DNA of 32,000 bases from Nostoc sp. PCC 7120 = FACHB-418 (GTDB lineage Bacteria; Cyanobacteriota; Cyanobacteriia; Cyanobacteriales; Nostocaceae). A program made the translations under genes and the position numbers. The notes below the pieces were generated by a model. The model was given only the letters and a program-made list of their open reading frames with translations. It ran no database searches and was not told the DNA's origin. Shown one piece after another: positions 18,477-30,903 of this stretch. Every line of letters begins with the position of its first letter. The first letter of the stretch is position 1. The DNA lies in the NCBI RefSeq assembly GCF_000009705.1, contig NC_003272.1, positions 5,040,001 to 5,072,000 of the forward strand, written 5' to 3'.

Positions 18477-19322
18477 ATGCTAGTTATGCCTGACATCAAA
18501 GAACACGCAGTCATTCTTGCTAGACAATTTCTGCCTTATTACAGATTTATGCGTACGCAAGAATTAACTATTGATAGTAGTCAGGGATTGCAAACAGAGT
18601 TGAACAGCAATTCTATTAAAGTTTTAAATTGGAATATTGCTAAAAATAACTTTGAGAAATTTTGGTTTCAAGACTTTTTTAAAATCCTCAGGCTGTACCA
18701 ACCAGATATCATATTTCTACAAGAAGTCCGTATGGGCGTGAATGTAGAACAAATTATGGGCTTTACAAATATGAGTTGGGCTTATGCGCCTAATTTTATC
18801 GATGCTCATCATCAAACTTATTCAGGTATTTTGACGGCAGCAAAAATTAGTGCGATCGCTAAAAAAGTTATCGTCACTAAACACCATGAGCCTGTGTTCA
18901 AAACTCCTAAGGTTTCGCTGATTACTGAATATTCCTTATCTCATCAGCAACAGACACTTTTAACTATTAATAGCCATCTAATTAATTTTGTCGATTTAGA
19001 TAAATTTAAAGCTCAATTACACGAATTAGAGTTAGCCATATCTACCCATAGGGGTTCGATTCTTTTTGCTGGCGATTTCAATACTTGGAGTCGCAAACGA
19101 GCAGTCCTTTTAGAGAAAACAGTAATTCGATTGGGTTTAAAAGAAGCACATTTTACACCGGAAGAAAATAAAAAGATTAAACGGTTTCTTTTGTCACCCC
19201 CCCTAGATTATATTTTTTATCGTGGTTTGAGTGAAAAACCAGCAACTGCTAAGGTTTTAGATGAAATTTGTTCATCCGATCACAAACCTTTACTGGCAGA
19301 ATTTACTTATATCGATACATAA
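18477..19322 (+). CDS. Endonuclease/exonuclease/phosphatase (EEP) family protein, YbhP-like
   Basis: 281 aa with EEP landmarks: LNWNI, IIFLQEV, GDFNTW and SDHKPL near the C-terminus. The stop is 9 nt before the cls start. Confidence 0.85.
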   Translation: MLVMPDIKEHAVILARQFLPYYRFMRTQELTIDSSQGLQTELNSNSIKVLNWNIAKNNFEKFWFQDFFKILRLYQPDIIFLQEVRMGVNVEQIMGFTNMSWAYAPNFIDAHHQTYSGILTAAKISAIAKKVIVTKHHEPVFKTPKVSLITEYSLSHQQQTLLTINSHLINFVDLDKFKAQLHELELAISTHRGSILFAGDFNTWSRKRAVLLEKTVIRLGLKEAHFTPEENKKIKRFLLSPPLDYIFYRGLSEKPATAKVLDEICSSDHKPLLAEFTYIDT

Positions 19323-19331
19323 TAAATTCAG

Positions 19332-20774
19332 ATGCTGATAGACAGTAGCGTCCTTGCTTTTTTTAGCGCAGCTACAGTTGTTATTCATGGTTTGGGAATT
19401 GCCCATGCTGCCCATGCCGTGATGGATGTGCGTTCTTCTCGTGGGGCGATCGCTTGGAGTATTTCCTTAATCACTTTTCCCTGGCTGACTATTCCTTTAT
19501 ATTGGATCTTAGGCAGAACTAAGTTTCATGGATATTCTGAAGCTATCCGCTCAGTTTACGCCCAACATTATCAATTTGTTCGTCAAACTTATATTGAGAT
19601 TACAAAATTTCAGGTGGTAGTTTCGGCAAAATTGGAACCATTGCAACTATTAGCTGAGGCCTTCATTGGTATTCCTTTTACATCTGGTAATAATGCCAAA
19701 TTACTAATTAATGGTCAGCAAACTTATGCAGCCATGTTGAGTGCGATCGCATCTGCCAATAGTTATATTTTGCTGCAATCCTACATTGTTGTTGATGACA
19801 AAGCTGGGAATGAGTTTAAAGATGCTCTAATTGCCAAGGCAAAGCAAGGAATAAGAGTTTACTTAATTTATGATGAAATTGGTTCTAATAAAATCTCTCG
19901 CCTTTATGTTAAATCTCTGCAAAAATATGATATTCAAGTGAGTGCATTTCATACTACCAGAGGCAGAGGTAATCGTTTTCAATTAAATTTCCGCAACCAT
20001 CGCAAAATTTTAGTAGTTGATGGGAGAACTGCGTTTATTGGTGGTTTGAATATTAGTGATGAATATCTAGGTAAAAATCCTCGCCTGAGTCCTTGGCGTG
20101 ATACCCACATGATGTTAGAAGGCCCCACTGTCCAAAGTCTGCAAGGATGTTTTTTGCAAGATTGGTATTGGGCGACTCGTCAAGTTATCGATGTAAACTG
20201 GCAAGTGCAACCCAATTGGGAAAGTGACTACACAGCATTGGTATTTCCTACAGGCCCCGCAGATAAGCTGAAAGCTTGTAAACTGTTTTTCGTCAGCGCT
20301 ATCAATCAAGCACAAACTCGTCTCTGGATTGCTACTCCCTATTTTGTGCCGGATGATTCCACTTTGACAGCCTTGAAATTGGCAGCACTACGCGGCGTGG
20401 ATGTGCGAATTATTTTACCAAATCGACCCGATCATTTACTTGTGTACTTGTGTTCCTTTTCTTATTACACAGAGATGAAGGCAACGAATATTAAATTATA
20501 TCGATATAAACATGGATTTATGCACCAGAAGGTAATACTGATTGACAAAGAAATGGCAGGTGTGGGAACAGTTAATCTAGATAATCGCTCATTCTTTCTC
20601 AATTTTGAAGTTATGGGTTTTGTTGCCAATTCTCAGTTTGTGAAAAGTGTGGAGGAGATGTTACAAGCTGATTTAAAGGCTGCTTTGGCTGTGGATTTTT
20701 CTGATTATGAGAGGAAATATTTGTGGTTTAAGTTAGCTGTGAGAATATCTAGTTTGTTGAAACCTTTGTTGTGA
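19332..20774 (+). CDS. cls: Cardiolipin synthase (PLD superfamily, two HKD motifs)
   Basis: 480 aa. There are two N-terminal TM helices and two HxKxxxxD motifs (HRKILVVDG and HQKVILIDK), each followed by GG/GT-N-L/I-D/S context. Confidence 0.92.
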   Translation: MLIDSSVLAFFSAATVVIHGLGIAHAAHAVMDVRSSRGAIAWSISLITFPWLTIPLYWILGRTKFHGYSEAIRSVYAQHYQFVRQTYIEITKFQVVVSAKLEPLQLLAEAFIGIPFTSGNNAKLLINGQQTYAAMLSAIASANSYILLQSYIVVDDKAGNEFKDALIAKAKQGIRVYLIYDEIGSNKISRLYVKSLQKYDIQVSAFHTTRGRGNRFQLNFRNHRKILVVDGRTAFIGGLNISDEYLGKNPRLSPWRDTHMMLEGPTVQSLQGCFLQDWYWATRQVIDVNWQVQPNWESDYTALVFPTGPADKLKACKLFFVSAINQAQTRLWIATPYFVPDDSTLTALKLAALRGVDVRIILPNRPDHLLVYLCSFSYYTEMKATNIKLYRYKHGFMHQKVILIDKEMAGVGTVNLDNRSFFLNFEVMGFVANSQFVKSVEEMLQADLKAALAVDFSDYERKYLWFKLAVRISSLLKPLL

Positions 20775-24030: not shown

Positions 24031-24588
24031 GTGACTCTAACAACTGCAAAGTGGAAGATTGACGACTATCATCGCATGATTGCAGCCGGAATTTTGACAG
24101 GGCGACAGGTGGAATTACTCAATGGAGAGGTTGTAGAAATGGCCCCAGAGGGAGAATCCCACGCTTATTGCAGTGATGAGGCGGGAGAATATTTAATTTA
24201 CCTGTTAGGAAATAAGGCGAAAGTCCGCCAAGCCAAACCAATTACCTTACCTGATAGTAACTCAGAACCAGAACCTGATATTGCGATCGTGCAACGCTTG
24301 GGGAAGGATTACAGATAACACCATCCTTATCCAGAAAACGTTTTTTGGGTAATTGAGTATTCAGATTCAAGTCTAACTAAAGACTTGGAAGTGAAAACCA
24401 AGATTTACGCCGCAGTAGGGATTCCAGAATATTGGGTAATTAATTTACGAACTATGCAACTTATTGTATTTAGACAACCTACAGAAAAAGGTTATCAGTC
24501 ACAAGAAATATTAACGCAGGGAAGTATTAACCCTTTGGCATTTACTGATATTGCCGTTTCTATTGAGAAATTATTGGGTAATCAATGA
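24031..24588 (+). pseudogene. Uma2-family (DUF820) endonuclease gene interrupted by one in-frame TAA
   Basis: Track ORFs 24031-24318 and 24385-24588 are in the same frame (offset 354 nt). Reading through the TAA at 24316-24318 gives ...IAIVQRLGKDYR*HHPYPENVFWVIEYSDSSLTKDLEVKTKIYAAVGIPEYWVINL..., a continuous Uma2 core (E-x-S-D-S-S, GIPEYW). Confidence 0.8.
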
Positions 24589-24842
24589 CAGTGAGTATTT
24601 GGACGTATGTCTAAATTGTTATGTGTTTATTGAACAGCTAACATTAGTAATATTTATTAATTTGCTTAATATTTATAGAGATATTGAGTAACTCCAGAGT
24701 AGATACTTGATGCACGAAAACTAAATTTTCTTACTTTAAAGTATGTGTAAATATTTACTTTATAATTGACCATTTTAACCCACAATGTATACAATATATT
24801 ACTAAGCTTTTCAAGTTCCAATACCATGATTACAGTATTTAT

Positions 24843-26024
24843 ATGAATAACAATTACTCTTTTGATGATGATCAAAATTGGTTTGAAGATTACTCTAATG
24901 AAGAGGATGATTTTCAAATTGATGAATATGATTTGACCTCTACACCTAATGATTTTAATGTACTAACAATTTATAATTTTATGGAATCTGGAGCAGTAAA
25001 AATACCTGGATTTCAAAGAAACTACGTTTGGGATTTAAATAGAGCATCAAAACTAATTGAATCCATAATTCTTGGGTTGCCAATTCCGCAAATATTTCTT
25101 TATGAAGAAGATAGAAATAAATTTTTAGTGATTGATGGTCAACAACGTTTAATGTCAATTTATTATTTTATGAAGCGTAGATTTCCTGTTAAGGAGAAGC
25201 GAGTTGAATTAAGGCTGATTTTTGAAAAATTCGGCAAAATTCCTGATGACATACTACACGATAATAATTATTTTATAGATTTTGATTTAAGTCTCCCACA
25301 AAAACTTCCTAAACAACCAAACAAATTTAAAGGTCTTAATTATTATACTTTAGATGATTACAAAACACAGTTCGAGCTTAGGCCTATCCGTAACGTAATA
25401 GTTAAACAAAACTTTCCTAAGGATGATGATTCTTCAATATATGAAATTTTTAATCGTTTAAATTCAGGTGGAGTTAATTTATATCCACAAGAAATTAGAG
25501 CTAGTTTATATCATTCCCCTTTCTATGAGATGCTCAATCGTATCAATATGGAACAAGGATGGCGAGATTTATTACATATGAATGAGCCGGATATTCACAT
25601 GAAAGATATTGAACTTTTGCTTCGAGGTTTTGCTATGCTGATTGATGGCGAAGATTATGCTCCCTCACTACCCAAATTTTTAAACAAATTTTCTAGAAAA
25701 AGTAGAAATAATTCTCATGAACAAAATCAATATCTTGAGAATTTATTTAAATCCTTTTTAAAACAATGTGAGTCTTTACCGCAAGAACCATTTATGAAAA
25801 AACGTAATAATCGATTCCATATAGCCCTTTTTGAAGCTGTATTTACTGCAATATGTAAGTCAAAATTCTTGCAAAGACAGCTATTAGATCACCCTTTAGA
25901 TATTAATAAAATTAAGCAGCTAGAAAACGATGAGCAATTTGTAAAAGCTTCATCGGAAGGAACAACAAAGACATCTAACGTAGAAACTCGTTTAGAACGA
26001 GCTACAAAAATATTAGGAGAATAG
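24843..26024 (+). CDS. DUF262 (ParB/Srx-fold, GmrS-like) domain protein lacking a DUF1524 nuclease domain
   Basis: 393 aa with IPGFQRNYVW (aa 54-63), DGQQR (aa 98-102, nt 25134-25148) and FNRLNSGGVNL. The C-terminal ~180 aa look helical and have no His-Me/HNH-like motif. The N-terminus is acidic. The start could instead be M47 (nt 24981). Confidence 0.85.
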   Translation: MNNNYSFDDDQNWFEDYSNEEDDFQIDEYDLTSTPNDFNVLTIYNFMESGAVKIPGFQRNYVWDLNRASKLIESIILGLPIPQIFLYEEDRNKFLVIDGQQRLMSIYYFMKRRFPVKEKRVELRLIFEKFGKIPDDILHDNNYFIDFDLSLPQKLPKQPNKFKGLNYYTLDDYKTQFELRPIRNVIVKQNFPKDDDSSIYEIFNRLNSGGVNLYPQEIRASLYHSPFYEMLNRINMEQGWRDLLHMNEPDIHMKDIELLLRGFAMLIDGEDYAPSLPKFLNKFSRKSRNNSHEQNQYLENLFKSFLKQCESLPQEPFMKKRNNRFHIALFEAVFTAICKSKFLQRQLLDHPLDINKIKQLENDEQFVKASSEGTTKTSNVETRLERATKILGE

Positions 26025-26035
26025 GAGATATTGTA

Positions 26036-26566
26036 GTGCTTGAAGATACGGGTGTAGATAGACTCTACAAAGAGTTTAAAGATTTAGTAGTATATCTTGA
26101 AAAGGATAACGAAATATCACTCAAAAATACGGTAGATGAAAATTTTAGGAAGGCTTTACTACTAGCAGCAGCAAGCTATTTTGAATCTCGCATAACAGAT
26201 GATATTGTCAGATTTGTAGACGAAACATCTAATAAAAATAAAGTTTTATTATCTTTTGTACAGAATAAAGCTATTAGTAGACAATATCATACCTACTTCA
26301 ATTGGAAAGAAACAAATGCCAATACTTTTTTTGGTTTATTCGGAGAAGTCTTTTCAAATTTTCTCAAGAAAGAAGTAAAAGATAATGATCAACTTAATTC
26401 TTCTATTAAAGCATTCCTTGAAATAGGGCGTGAAAGAAACAGACTAGTACATCAGGATTTTGGTACTTTCTCATTAGAAAAAACTTCTGATGAAATATAT
26501 GAACTATATAAGAAGGCTTTAATGTTTGTAGATTCTTTCCCTGAGAAGCTTCGCCAATGTTTATAA
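26036..26566 (+). CDS. HEPN-like protein (Rx4H motif), partner of the DUF262 gene
   Basis: 176 aa. The GTG start lies 11 nt after the DUF262 stop and is preceded by GGAGA. The composition looks helical. RNRLVH (R134-H139, nt 26435-26452) lies near the C-terminal third, as in HEPN RNases. Confidence 0.7.
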   Translation: MLEDTGVDRLYKEFKDLVVYLEKDNEISLKNTVDENFRKALLLAAASYFESRITDDIVRFVDETSNKNKVLLSFVQNKAISRQYHTYFNWKETNANTFFGLFGEVFSNFLKKEVKDNDQLNSSIKAFLEIGRERNRLVHQDFGTFSLEKTSDEIYELYKKALMFVDSFPEKLRQCL

Positions 26567-26752
26567 GAAAACAAATATTAGACTAGTAATTTTTATAGAA
26601 TTGTTAATTAAATCATTAATATATCTAGTACTCGTATTTGTTTAGAAAACTCAATACACATATATTCCCTTTTTCCTATGCCCTGTTACCTGCCTACGAA
26701 AGTCACTTTGGTAATCAAATCTAATTCCTACATATCTAGCGCAATAGTCAAA

Positions 26753-29430: not shown

Positions 29431-30903
29431 CTATTTGAATTCTATAAAAGACAAATCTTCAGCAAGAATCAAGTTAATTTCGTAATCATCTAACTCTTGT
29501 AAATGTGTAACGATGCGGTTAGCTTGTTGTTCAATGCTGCGTTCAAATAGCGCCCGCGCAAAGCGTCCATTACCAAAACTTTTGTCCCGTTTGGCGTAGG
29601 CGACCTCAAAGGTGGCTTGCAGCACGATAATGGCTGAGGAGTCTAAAATATAACCGTTGTCTTGACAGAATTTCTTGAAAATCAATAGCAACTGATTGGG
29701 AGTGTAGTGATCAAGATAAAATAACCGATTTAACCGTGATTTAAAACCGGGGTTTAACTCTAATAAGCGATCCATTTCATCAGTGTAGCCGGCGACAACC
29801 ACAGCCATGTGATCGCGGTAATCTTCCATGCGTTTAATTAATATCTGCAATGCTTCCTTGCCAAAATCGCTAGGGGTATCTTCAGCCGCTAAGGCGTGGG
29901 CTTCGTCAATGAACAAAACACCGCCGATGGCTTGGTGTACAGCACTTTCCATTCGTAGGGCAGTTTGTCCAATATAACCGCCAATGATGCCGGCGCGATC
30001 GGTTTCAACAACGTGTCCCCGTGGAAAAAATCCCATTTGTTTATATAAACGCCCTACCAAACGGGCGATGGTCGTCTTACCTGTACCTGGGGGGCCGTAA
30101 AGCATTAGGTGTAGTGAAGTGTCTACTATTTTTAGTCCTCGTTTTCTCCGTTCCGTTTGTACTTTCAAGTAGTTGGCTAAGGAGAAAAGTTGATGTTTAG
30201 TTTGCTCATGCCCAACTAATGCCTTTAAGTCTGCAAACACAGCTTCTACAGTATCCTTTTCTGGGGGGTCATGCTCAACAAAAGAGGCTTTTGTCTCCTG
30301 CTTAGAATCACGAGTATCACTATGACTATCAACCGATTCTTTTTCCGTATCGGGAGCGCTGACAATTAAACTATGGACTTTCATTTTGATTTTGTCATGA
30401 ATCACAAAACCAAAATTTTTCCCTGAGACATCAACTAACTTATCGGCAGGAAATTTATCTACTAAAGTACTGTTGATATAGAACTCTACCATATTACCCA
30501 CACGGGTAATTTCTAAAAGGTTAACCGAGTCACTACGGTGAATGCGATCGCACCTTTTCCAATCTGTGTAATTAATAAAGTTACCATCTTTGATTTCCGT
30601 GATGCGATAGTGACCATTGCCCGAAATCACGAACTCAAAGAAATTGCTAACGTCTGACAATCCCCAGACAAAACCATAACCATGATCATCTACACCAGCA
30701 GCTTTTTCTAGAACTATATGAATATGAAAATTCGTTCTCTCATAAAAGAACTCGGCTGAGTTCCACGATAGCCAATATGTATCACCTGCACGTTTATGGT
30801 CAAATACATAATGACTCACGTCCATGCAAAGGCTACACTCTTCACTATCTCGTGTTACCCAGCTACAGCGATTGTCTTGAAAATGCTCTTCAAAAATCAG
30901 CAT
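29431..30903 (-). CDS. AAA+ ATPase (CbbX/SpoVK-like module) fused to an unassigned N-terminal domain of about 185 aa
   Basis: 490 aa. Walker A is GPPGTGKTT (nt ~30073-30096) and Walker B is VLFIDEAH. GYTDEMDRLLELNPGFKSRL is typical of the CbbX/SpoVK clade. An acidic/Ser-rich linker spans aa 186-220. Confidence 0.88.
   Translation of the reverse strand: MLIFEEHFQDNRCSWVTRDSEECSLCMDVSHYVFDHKRAGDTYWLSWNSAEFFYERTNFHIHIVLEKAAGVDDHGYGFVWGLSDVSNFFEFVISGNGHYRITEIKDGNFINYTDWKRCDRIHRSDSVNLLEITRVGNMVEFYINSTLVDKFPADKLVDVSGKNFGFVIHDKIKMKVHSLIVSAPDTEKESVDSHSDTRDSKQETKASFVEHDPPEKDTVEAVFADLKALVGHEQTKHQLFSLANYLKVQTERRKRGLKIVDTSLHLMLYGPPGTGKTTIARLVGRLYKQMGFFPRGHVVETDRAGIIGGYIGQTALRMESAVHQAIGGVLFIDEAHALAAEDTPSDFGKEALQILIKRMEDYRDHMAVVVAGYTDEMDRLLELNPGFKSRLNRLFYLDHYTPNQLLLIFKKFCQDNGYILDSSAIIVLQATFEVAYAKRDKSFGNGRFARALFERSIEQQANRIVTHLQELDDYEINLILAEDLSFIEFK

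Follow-up and report, generated by a model that had tools for sequence, protein, structure and literature searches.

A two-gene DUF262 and HEPN cassette in the chromosome of Nostoc sp. PCC 7120 is probably a divergent anti-phage system of the PD-T4-2 type

The window analysed here is a 32,000-nucleotide (nt) stretch of the chromosome of Nostoc sp. PCC 7120 (NC_003272.1, positions 5,040,001 to 5,072,000 of the forward strand), and the coordinates below are counted from its first letter. Between 24843 and 26566 it carries two adjacent open reading frames (ORFs), ORF1 encoding a DUF262 protein and ORF2 a predicted HEPN ribonuclease (RNase). The pair is probably a self-contained, horizontally mobile anti-phage cassette of the type of PD-T4-2, a system from Escherichia coli, and would represent a divergent DUF262/ParBDB and RiboL-PSP-HEPN subfamily. 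It was assigned to this class because it shares the defining architecture of PD-T4-2. The class itself is already known and experimentally validated, so that what is new is the divergent subfamily and not a category of system. The domain identities, the conservation of catalytic-type residues (DGQQR in ORF1, Rx4H in ORF2), the obligate pairing of the two genes and the mobility of the cassette are established. Moreover, the cassette is a real and intact two-gene unit, far beyond chance, because two intact ORFs lie in AT-rich DNA (GC 0.28-0.32), have many database homologues and show near-universal synteny.

Layout and distribution of the gene pair

The features of the cassette are as follows (aa, amino acids; pLDDT, predicted local distance difference test score).

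24843..26024, forward strand: ORF1 (A component), ATG start, 393 aa; DUF262/ParB-Srx-fold NTPase with an NsnA-C/ParBDB-like helical C-terminal half
24843..24941, forward strand: N-terminal tail of ORF1, aa 1-33; 12 D/E, 0 K/R and 7 F/W/Y; predicted to be disordered (pLDDT about 30-40)
24966..25511, forward strand: DUF262 domain of ORF1, aa 42-223; PF03235 GmrSD_N, 2.6e-32; motifs QRxxxW (F57-W63), DGQQR (D98-R102) and FxxxN (F203-N207)
25512..26021, forward strand: helical C-terminal half of ORF1, aa ~224-393; homologous to the C-terminal ParBDB region of NsnA, with full-length profile alignments to aa 391
26023-26028, forward strand: Shine-Dalgarno-like AGGAGA, read from the sequence, overlapping the ORF1 stop and 7 nt ahead of the ORF2 GTG
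26036..26566, forward strand: ORF2 (B component), GTG start, 176 aa; RiboL-PSP-type HEPN, predicted RNase effector
26279..26344, forward strand: second conserved block of ORF2, aa 82-103, RQYH..F.W...NAN.F...FG; subfamily-specific
26435..26452, forward strand: ORF2 codons of the Rx4H motif RNRLVH (R134-H139); invariant in 35 homologues

The original prediction for this window had described an operon of two ORFs, the second beginning 11 nt past the stop of the first with its own Shine-Dalgarno sequence. Both ORFs are present, at 24843-26024 and 26036-26566; ORF1 ends in TAG at 26022-26024, the 11-nt spacer is right and AGGAGA is in place. The operon reading is also borne out, the genes being co-oriented, closely spaced and in the same order in related loci.

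Related loci were gathered with a profile of ORF2 homologues, 80 of them in reference genomes and 16 in viral contigs (IMG/VR). The genome loci sampled came from Cyanobacteria, Acidobacteria, Chloroflexota, Proteobacteria, Spirochaetes, Latescibacterota, Nitrospirae and Parcubacteria, together with two archaea. An ORF1 homologue was found upstream and on the same strand in every locus that had upstream sequence (95/95), which answers the question of synteny raised with the prediction. The gap between the A and B BLAST alignments was at most 107 nt in 92/95 loci, and, measured from the A stop codon, the B alignment mostly began at between -11 and +35 nt (93 loci); such short distances are consistent with co-translation as one operon. 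Moreover, the identities of A and B to the window pair co-vary over the loci (r = 0.79). No conserved third gene was found among the 115 nearest flanking ORFs, which fall into 109 Pfam families, mostly housekeeping. The A-to-B pairing is therefore obligate across phyla and lacks a third partner gene.

A few loci depart from this pattern. A and B are separated by about 1.6 kb in L023 and 0.9 kb in L047, possibly through insertions, and a 287-nt alignment gap is seen in L019, whilst the A ORF is truncated to 165 aa in L038 and 196 aa in L072; these five may be decaying copies. In Vicinamibacterales loci (L008, L009, L011, L016 and similar), the pair has four squalene-hopene cyclases among its neighbours, which probably reflects the chromosomal context of one lineage and not a functional link.

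ORF1 is a DUF262 protein without a detectable nuclease domain

All of the DUF262 hallmark motifs quoted in the original prediction were found in ORF1, namely IPGFQRNYVW at aa 54-63, DGQQR at 98-102 and FNRLNSGGVNL at 203-213. They contain the QRxxxW, DGQQR and FxxxN motifs defined in the Menshen survey (PMC12065111), and every residue of the three is invariant among 36 ORF1 homologues of 63-82% identity. The absence of a DUF1524 nuclease was likewise as predicted: no DUF1524 (PF07510), His-Me, HNH or any other nuclease domain was detected in ORF1 by Pfam (E<=1) or PADLOC. The C-terminal half is a putative DNA-binding domain by its alignment to the ParBDB of NsnA, ParBDB being a DNA-binding domain described for NsnA, GmrSD and SspE (PMC12065111). 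Within the acidic and aromatic N-terminal tail, E28, Y29 and D30 are invariant and F14, D16 and Y17 are at least 90% conserved in the same 36 homologues; the tail could serve as a nucleic-acid mimic or a partner-binding segment.

ORF1 has 5053 database homologues and falls in the phage protein family PHROG 2598 (3e-95). The C-terminal half of its AlphaFold2 (AF2) model is all helical with pLDDT of 80-94 (63.8 overall). When an ORF1 profile was searched against PDB sequences, the sole match was BrxU (7p9k, E = 0.077). Of the PADLOC models, NsnA gave the best match (4.3e-60, 202 bits, aa 22-391 against profile 34-379 of 385), and PD-T4-2_A was matched at 9.7e-43 (144.6 bits) in two segments that extend to position 361 of the 363 in the profile, whereas the SspE, HEC-05 and HEC-06 models matched over about 30-80 N-terminal residues only.

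These matches bear on the proposal, made with the original prediction, that the pair is a 'split GmrSD'. What stands of it is the combination of a DUF262 protein and a HEPN protein from a gene of its own. The GmrSD part is imprecise, as ORF1 aligns end to end with NsnA and PD-T4-2_A and with GmrSD-type models N-terminally only. ORF1 does share with GmrSD, BrxU and SspE an N-terminal DUF262 with QRxxxW, DGQQR and FxxxN; however, the pair lacks their DUF1524 His-Me nuclease, and its effector is predicted to target RNA instead of DNA. Identity with GmrSD was therefore rejected, there being no PF07510 in ORF1 or in the neighbouring genes and only N-terminal model matches.

The strength of the NsnA match raises the alternative of a degenerate Menshen system, in which ORF1 would be an orphan NsnA left after loss of NsnB and NsnC. 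ORF1 has the ParB-DUF262 and ParBDB architecture of Menshen NsnA (Millman 2022; PMC12065111) in full-length alignment, and the logic proposed for Menshen, a DUF262 sensor with an RNase effector, is alike (PMC12065111). However, Menshen has three genes, including the ABC-ATPase NsnB and the inPIN-effector NsnC, whilst the cassette described here has two, with a stand-alone HEPN effector. Identity with Menshen was rejected because neither NsnB nor NsnC occurs among the flanking ORFs within 3 kb on either side. A genuine Menshen locus included for contrast (L125) scores 1e-102 for NsnA and 3e-92 for NsnB, and all of the loci examined have a PF18735 HEPN gene as the downstream partner. Furthermore, PD-T4-2 is treated as a separate DUF262-centred system in the Menshen survey (PMC12065111). 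A degenerate Menshen is thus hardly credible, being effectively refuted by the conserved two-gene synteny.

ORF2 is a predicted HEPN ribonuclease

ORF2 matched the Pfam family PF18735 (HEPN_RiboL-PSP) at 1.1e-24 over aa 8-172, with 87.8 bits against a cutoff of 28.4, and carries the RNRLVH motif on which it had first been called an Rx4H HEPN protein. The family named at that time, MAE_18760/MAE_28990, was the wrong one: PF18737 is unreported for ORF2 at E<=1 and the family is PF18735. The motif is kept in homologues, as the prediction had required, with R134 conserved in 150/151 ORF2 representatives of 35-63% identity and N135 and H139 in 148/151 each. Such near-absolute conservation argues for a catalytic HEPN. 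The second block, at aa 82-103, is also strongly conserved in these representatives (G103 151/151, F88 150/151, W90 148/151, R82 143/151, H85 134/151). It sits in a lower-confidence loop and short-helix part of the ORF2 AF2 model and is missing from the distant variants L120-L123.

More than 1000 database homologues of ORF2 were found, and it falls in the phage protein family PHROG 15536 (1.6e-64). The HEPN family to which it belongs comprises 893 clusters at 50% identity, nearly all of them stand-alone proteins of 170-200 aa. The sole clear fusion among the 150 best representatives is P0328 (403 aa), in which the HEPN domain is joined to a C-terminal domain of ~220 aa with 'LIGANPGG'. AF2 confidently modelled ORF2 as an all-alpha protein (pLDDT 88.5). 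An ORF2 profile search of PDB sequences gave no match. Foldseek of the model listed, among unrelated helical proteins, the HEPN entries 2q00_B, 6m6w_D and 7bxo as weak matches (E 1.3-2.8) and a MAE_28990-like HEPN from a phage (E = 0.82), none of which is significant. As the fold searches thus gave no significant match, the HEPN assignment is based on the profile and motif evidence.

The pairing of such a gene with a ParB-like one has been noted before. The 2013 HEPN survey lists RiboL-PSP-HEPN in an 'operon with ParB' with Rx4-6H conserved (Anantharaman et al. 2013, PMC3710099), and the window agrees with this in that ORF2 is a strong PF18735 member with Rx4H beside a ParB-superfamily (DUF262) gene; the difference is that the 2013 description was purely computational. 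Other HEPN systems are more distant. DARNA/PD-T7-3 (bioRxiv 10.64898/2026.02.22.705581) is also a defence HEPN RNase with Rx4H gated by phage-derived DNA, which is a functional analogy only. It is a single polypeptide and a single-stranded-DNA-activated tRNase with its own C-terminal DNA-binding domain and no DUF262, and no sequence relationship between it and ORF2 was detected. HEPN-MNT (HepT/MntA) likewise places a small HEPN RNase beside a nucleotide-using partner, but here a DUF262 NTPase takes the place of the minimal nucleotidyltransferase as partner; identity was rejected since the defining parts are missing. HepT structures (6m6w, 7bxo) do appear among the Foldseek matches of ORF2, at non-significant E values of about 1.6-2.8. 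Dazbog was rejected, the PADLOC search giving no DzbA match. A type III toxin-antitoxin or AbiF-like arrangement, with a HEPN protein and an RNA antitoxin, was also rejected because the flanks carry no tandem-repeat antitoxin RNA; they contain no tandem or direct repeat arrays, Rfam family or terminator.

The same data can be set against the alternative of a type IV-restriction-like system, in which the DUF262/ParB-like protein would nick or cleave (modified) phage DNA and the HEPN protein would be accessory or regulatory and not an RNase. T4 DNA carries glucosylated hydroxymethylcytosine (glucosyl-hmC). PD-T4-2 was selected with T4 (PMC9519451), the best-known settings of DUF262 are GmrSD, BrxU and SspE, and a nuclease label has been attached to the family both in the 2013 survey ('ParB nuclease', PMC3710099) and in source annotations of ORF1 homologues ('ParB-like and HNH nuclease domain'). 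However, no DUF1524, HNH or other nuclease domain is detectable in ORF1, DUF262 in GmrSD-type enzymes is an NTPase and sensor and not a nuclease, and the conservation of R134, N135 and H139 speaks for a catalytic HEPN. We therefore regard a type IV-like system as very unlikely.

Comparison with PD-T4-2

PD-T4-2 was described from E. coli ECOR65 (QOYX01000002:338334-339873) and annotated 'DUF262, HEPN' (Vassallo et al. 2022, PMC9519451). Its A protein (RCO39066.1) is PF03235, and the top HHpred match of its B protein, an unannotated ORF, is PF18735 at 97.8% (PMC9519451). It guards K-12 against T4, and its deletion in ECOR65 restores T4 plaquing (PMC9519451). A review table places PD-T4-2 under both DUF262 and PF18735, and the Menshen survey (2025, PMC12065111) calls it 'largely uncharacterized'. 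The original prediction, which knew of no experimental characterisation, had thus overlooked a system of the same architecture validated against T4 both natively and heterologously. Its description of the system as uncharacterised is accurate for the mechanism, which is unpublished in the literature searched, but not for the architecture, which was already known and shown to defend.

The window pair resembles PD-T4-2 in having two adjacent, co-oriented genes, with the HEPN gene following the DUF262 gene. In both, the A protein is PF03235, that of the window without DUF1524 and matching PD-T4-2_A at the score given above, and B is a small HEPN protein whose best Pfam family is PF18735; PD-T4-2_B tops the PADLOC matches of ORF2. 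They differ in size, the window pair of 393 and 176 aa occupying 1724 nt compared to 1540 nt for the ECOR65 ORFs, and in host, the window being cyanobacterial, with likeness judged from profiles and the domain annotations of the ECOR65 proteins.

The PD-T4-2_B profile itself appears to be narrow. Other DUF262 and PF18735 pairs (L120-L123) miss it altogether, which suggests that the PADLOC profile is too narrow, and PADLOC might not call the window pair given the 17.7 bits of ORF2. The window-type subfamily also occurs in 31/5426 complete E. coli genomes, and its E. coli representative scores on PD-T4-2_B in the same way. A sensitive blastn of E. coli genomes did not reach the ECOR65 locus; its matches were members of the window-type subfamily and GmrSD genes on plasmids, the latter unrelated. 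Because of the weak match of ORF2 to PD-T4-2_B, the same scoring in E. coli and the failure of L120-L123 to match the profile, we read the window pair as a divergent subfamily of the PD-T4-2-type 'DUF262/ParBDB + RiboL-PSP-HEPN' class. The absence of NsnB and NsnC sets it apart from Menshen, and that of DUF1524 from GmrSD-like systems. In one of the distant variants, on a viral contig (L120, 1711-2721), a RelA_SpoT-domain gene (8.9e-19) directly follows the DUF262 and PF18735 pair; this gene could be an extra component of the alarmone type or belong to another system.

Several points weigh against assignment to a PD-T4-2-type defence system. PD-T4-2_B, although the best PADLOC match of ORF2, is matched weakly (6.8e-4, 17.7 bits, aa 37-143 aligned with positions 30-133 of the 168 in the profile), with CARF_HEPN at 2.6e-3, and the NsnA score of ORF1 exceeds its PD-T4-2_A score. 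Phage protection has been shown for the ECOR65 system, whereas the window subfamily is known from sequence alone, and no mechanistic study of PD-T4-2, or of the pair under another name, was found in the literature searched. Structural comparison added little: Foldseek of the ORF2 model against PDB and BFVD (viral structures) gave nothing at E<=0.001, and the ORF1 model is unreliable in its DUF262 half, making Foldseek output from it meaningless. As the nearest neighbours are mostly housekeeping genes, there is little defence-island support. Lastly, the trigger, the RNA target and the A-B interaction stand as proposals by analogy.

The scattered, non-island genomic contexts would also suit a toxin-antitoxin-like addiction module, with ORF2 as the HEPN RNase toxin and ORF1 as a protein antitoxin, which would stabilise its carrier element and for which phage defence would be incidental. 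It may be likened to HEPN-MNT or to the proposed HEPN-ParA/Soj dyads, and NTPase antitoxins have been proposed for HEPN dyads (Anantharaman et al., PMC3710099). Such a module would agree with the compact arrangement of the two genes, in which the putative neutraliser precedes the toxin, and with carriage by prophages and satellite-like elements. However, PD-T4-2, with the same architecture, strongly protects its native host from T4, and ORF1, with 393 aa, invariant NTPase motifs and a conserved DNA-binding-type domain, exceeds the needs of a simple antitoxin. Toxin-antitoxin behaviour and defence can, in any case, coexist. We consider an addiction module unlikely, and all three alternatives are less likely than a PD-T4-2-type defence cassette.

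Proposed mechanism and significance

The mechanism of a PD-T4-2-type cassette in the window can be proposed by analogy with the roles of DUF262 in GmrSD, BrxU and SspE and of HEPN effectors elsewhere; a sensor role for DUF262 and DNA binding by ParBDB come from published work on GmrSD, SspE and NsnA (PMC12065111). ORF1 would be the sensor and switch, a ParB/Srx-fold NTPase whose helical C-terminal domain is putatively DNA-binding, and in uninfected cells it would presumably hold ORF2 inactive. It would bind phage DNA, or a phage-specific state or modification of DNA, whereupon binding or hydrolysis of a nucleoside triphosphate would release or activate the ORF2 HEPN, probably a dimer with a composite Rx4H site. 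ORF2 would then cut RNA (tRNA, mRNA or rRNA), such that translation stops and infection aborts or stalls. The general idea of the original prediction, a DUF262 sensor with a separately encoded HEPN effector, therefore holds up as a proposal, motif conservation and synteny being favourable to it.

A more far-reaching version, which we think rather unlikely, is that the window pair belongs to a distinct and very widespread subfamily (bacteria, archaea, Parcubacteria, prophages) that is mechanistically different from E. coli PD-T4-2 and has a new form of HEPN gating. Gating could then involve the acidic/aromatic tail of ORF1 and the RQYH..W..NAN..FG block of ORF2. The trigger might then differ from hypermodified DNA, as hmC phages are not known to target most of the hosts.

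No published mechanism was found in the literature searched for PD-T4-2, whose defence activity has been validated, and the window subfamily should be useful in finding one. The pair is shown here to be an obligate two-gene unit spread over many phyla, archaea and prophages, and a well-populated subfamily with invariant catalytic-type residues offers clear targets for mutagenesis. For the Nostoc genome, the analysis provides an annotation of the pair as a probable anti-phage cassette of the abortive-infection type, horizontally acquired.

Genomic setting and mobility

The surroundings of the pair are core cyanobacterial chromosome, including the S10/spc ribosomal operon, SecY and NdhN. Two further features belong to the setting.

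24589..26752, no strand: AT-rich island with the cassette; GC content about 0.27-0.33 compared to 0.37-0.47 in the flanks
24766..24795, forward strand: tentative candidate promoter TTGACC-18 nt-TACAAT, ~48 nt 5' of the ORF1 ATG, with 10/12 consensus matches

The island is bounded by a split pseudogene of Uma2 and a gene for an M90 peptidase. In four Nostoc genomes, DNA of about 80% identity extends from 24831-24842 to 26566-26571 with unrelated flanks. That only the two genes are common to the Nostoc loci points to horizontal movement of a minimal cassette. Together with the drop in GC content, the 16 IMG/VR contigs, a prophage/satellite-like copy in E. coli and the PHROG families, it points to a mobile cassette that was horizontally acquired into a core chromosomal region. 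The candidate promoter lies outside the stretch that is alike in the Nostoc cassettes, so the site is not conserved, and the region shows no enrichment of promoter-like sites (9 found compared to 14.5 expected). No NsnB, NsnC, methylase or nuclease was found among the ORFs flanking the cassette.

In the E. coli NRG 857C copy (L097, 7092-17741), the pair adjoins a truncated major capsid gene and is followed by a satellite-like block (a helix-turn-helix regulator, head decoration/capsid genes, single-stranded DNA-binding protein, primase, an Icd-like gene and integrase) within a lambdoid prophage. This arrangement may represent a slot for defence cargo in a phage satellite.

Immediately 5' of the cassette in the window, two short ORFs at 24031-24318 and 24385-24588 (forward strand) encode the N- and C-terminal halves of Uma2 (PF05685, a putative restriction endonuclease) and look like a split pseudogene; the halves give weak PADLOC PDC-S03 matches. 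Further away, 18477-20774 (forward strand) encodes an Exo_endo_phos protein and then a two-HKD phospholipase D (PLD)-family protein with PLDc_N. The latter matches the PADLOC DrmC models (1.8e-19) and is probably not a defence protein, having a cardiolipin-synthase-type domain set. At 29431-30903 (reverse strand) lies a gene for a 490-aa protein, in which an N-terminal stretch of ~200 aa without a Pfam match precedes a C-terminal AAA and AAA_lid_6 ATPase with weak PADLOC matches to IetA/TRIP13 (4e-9).

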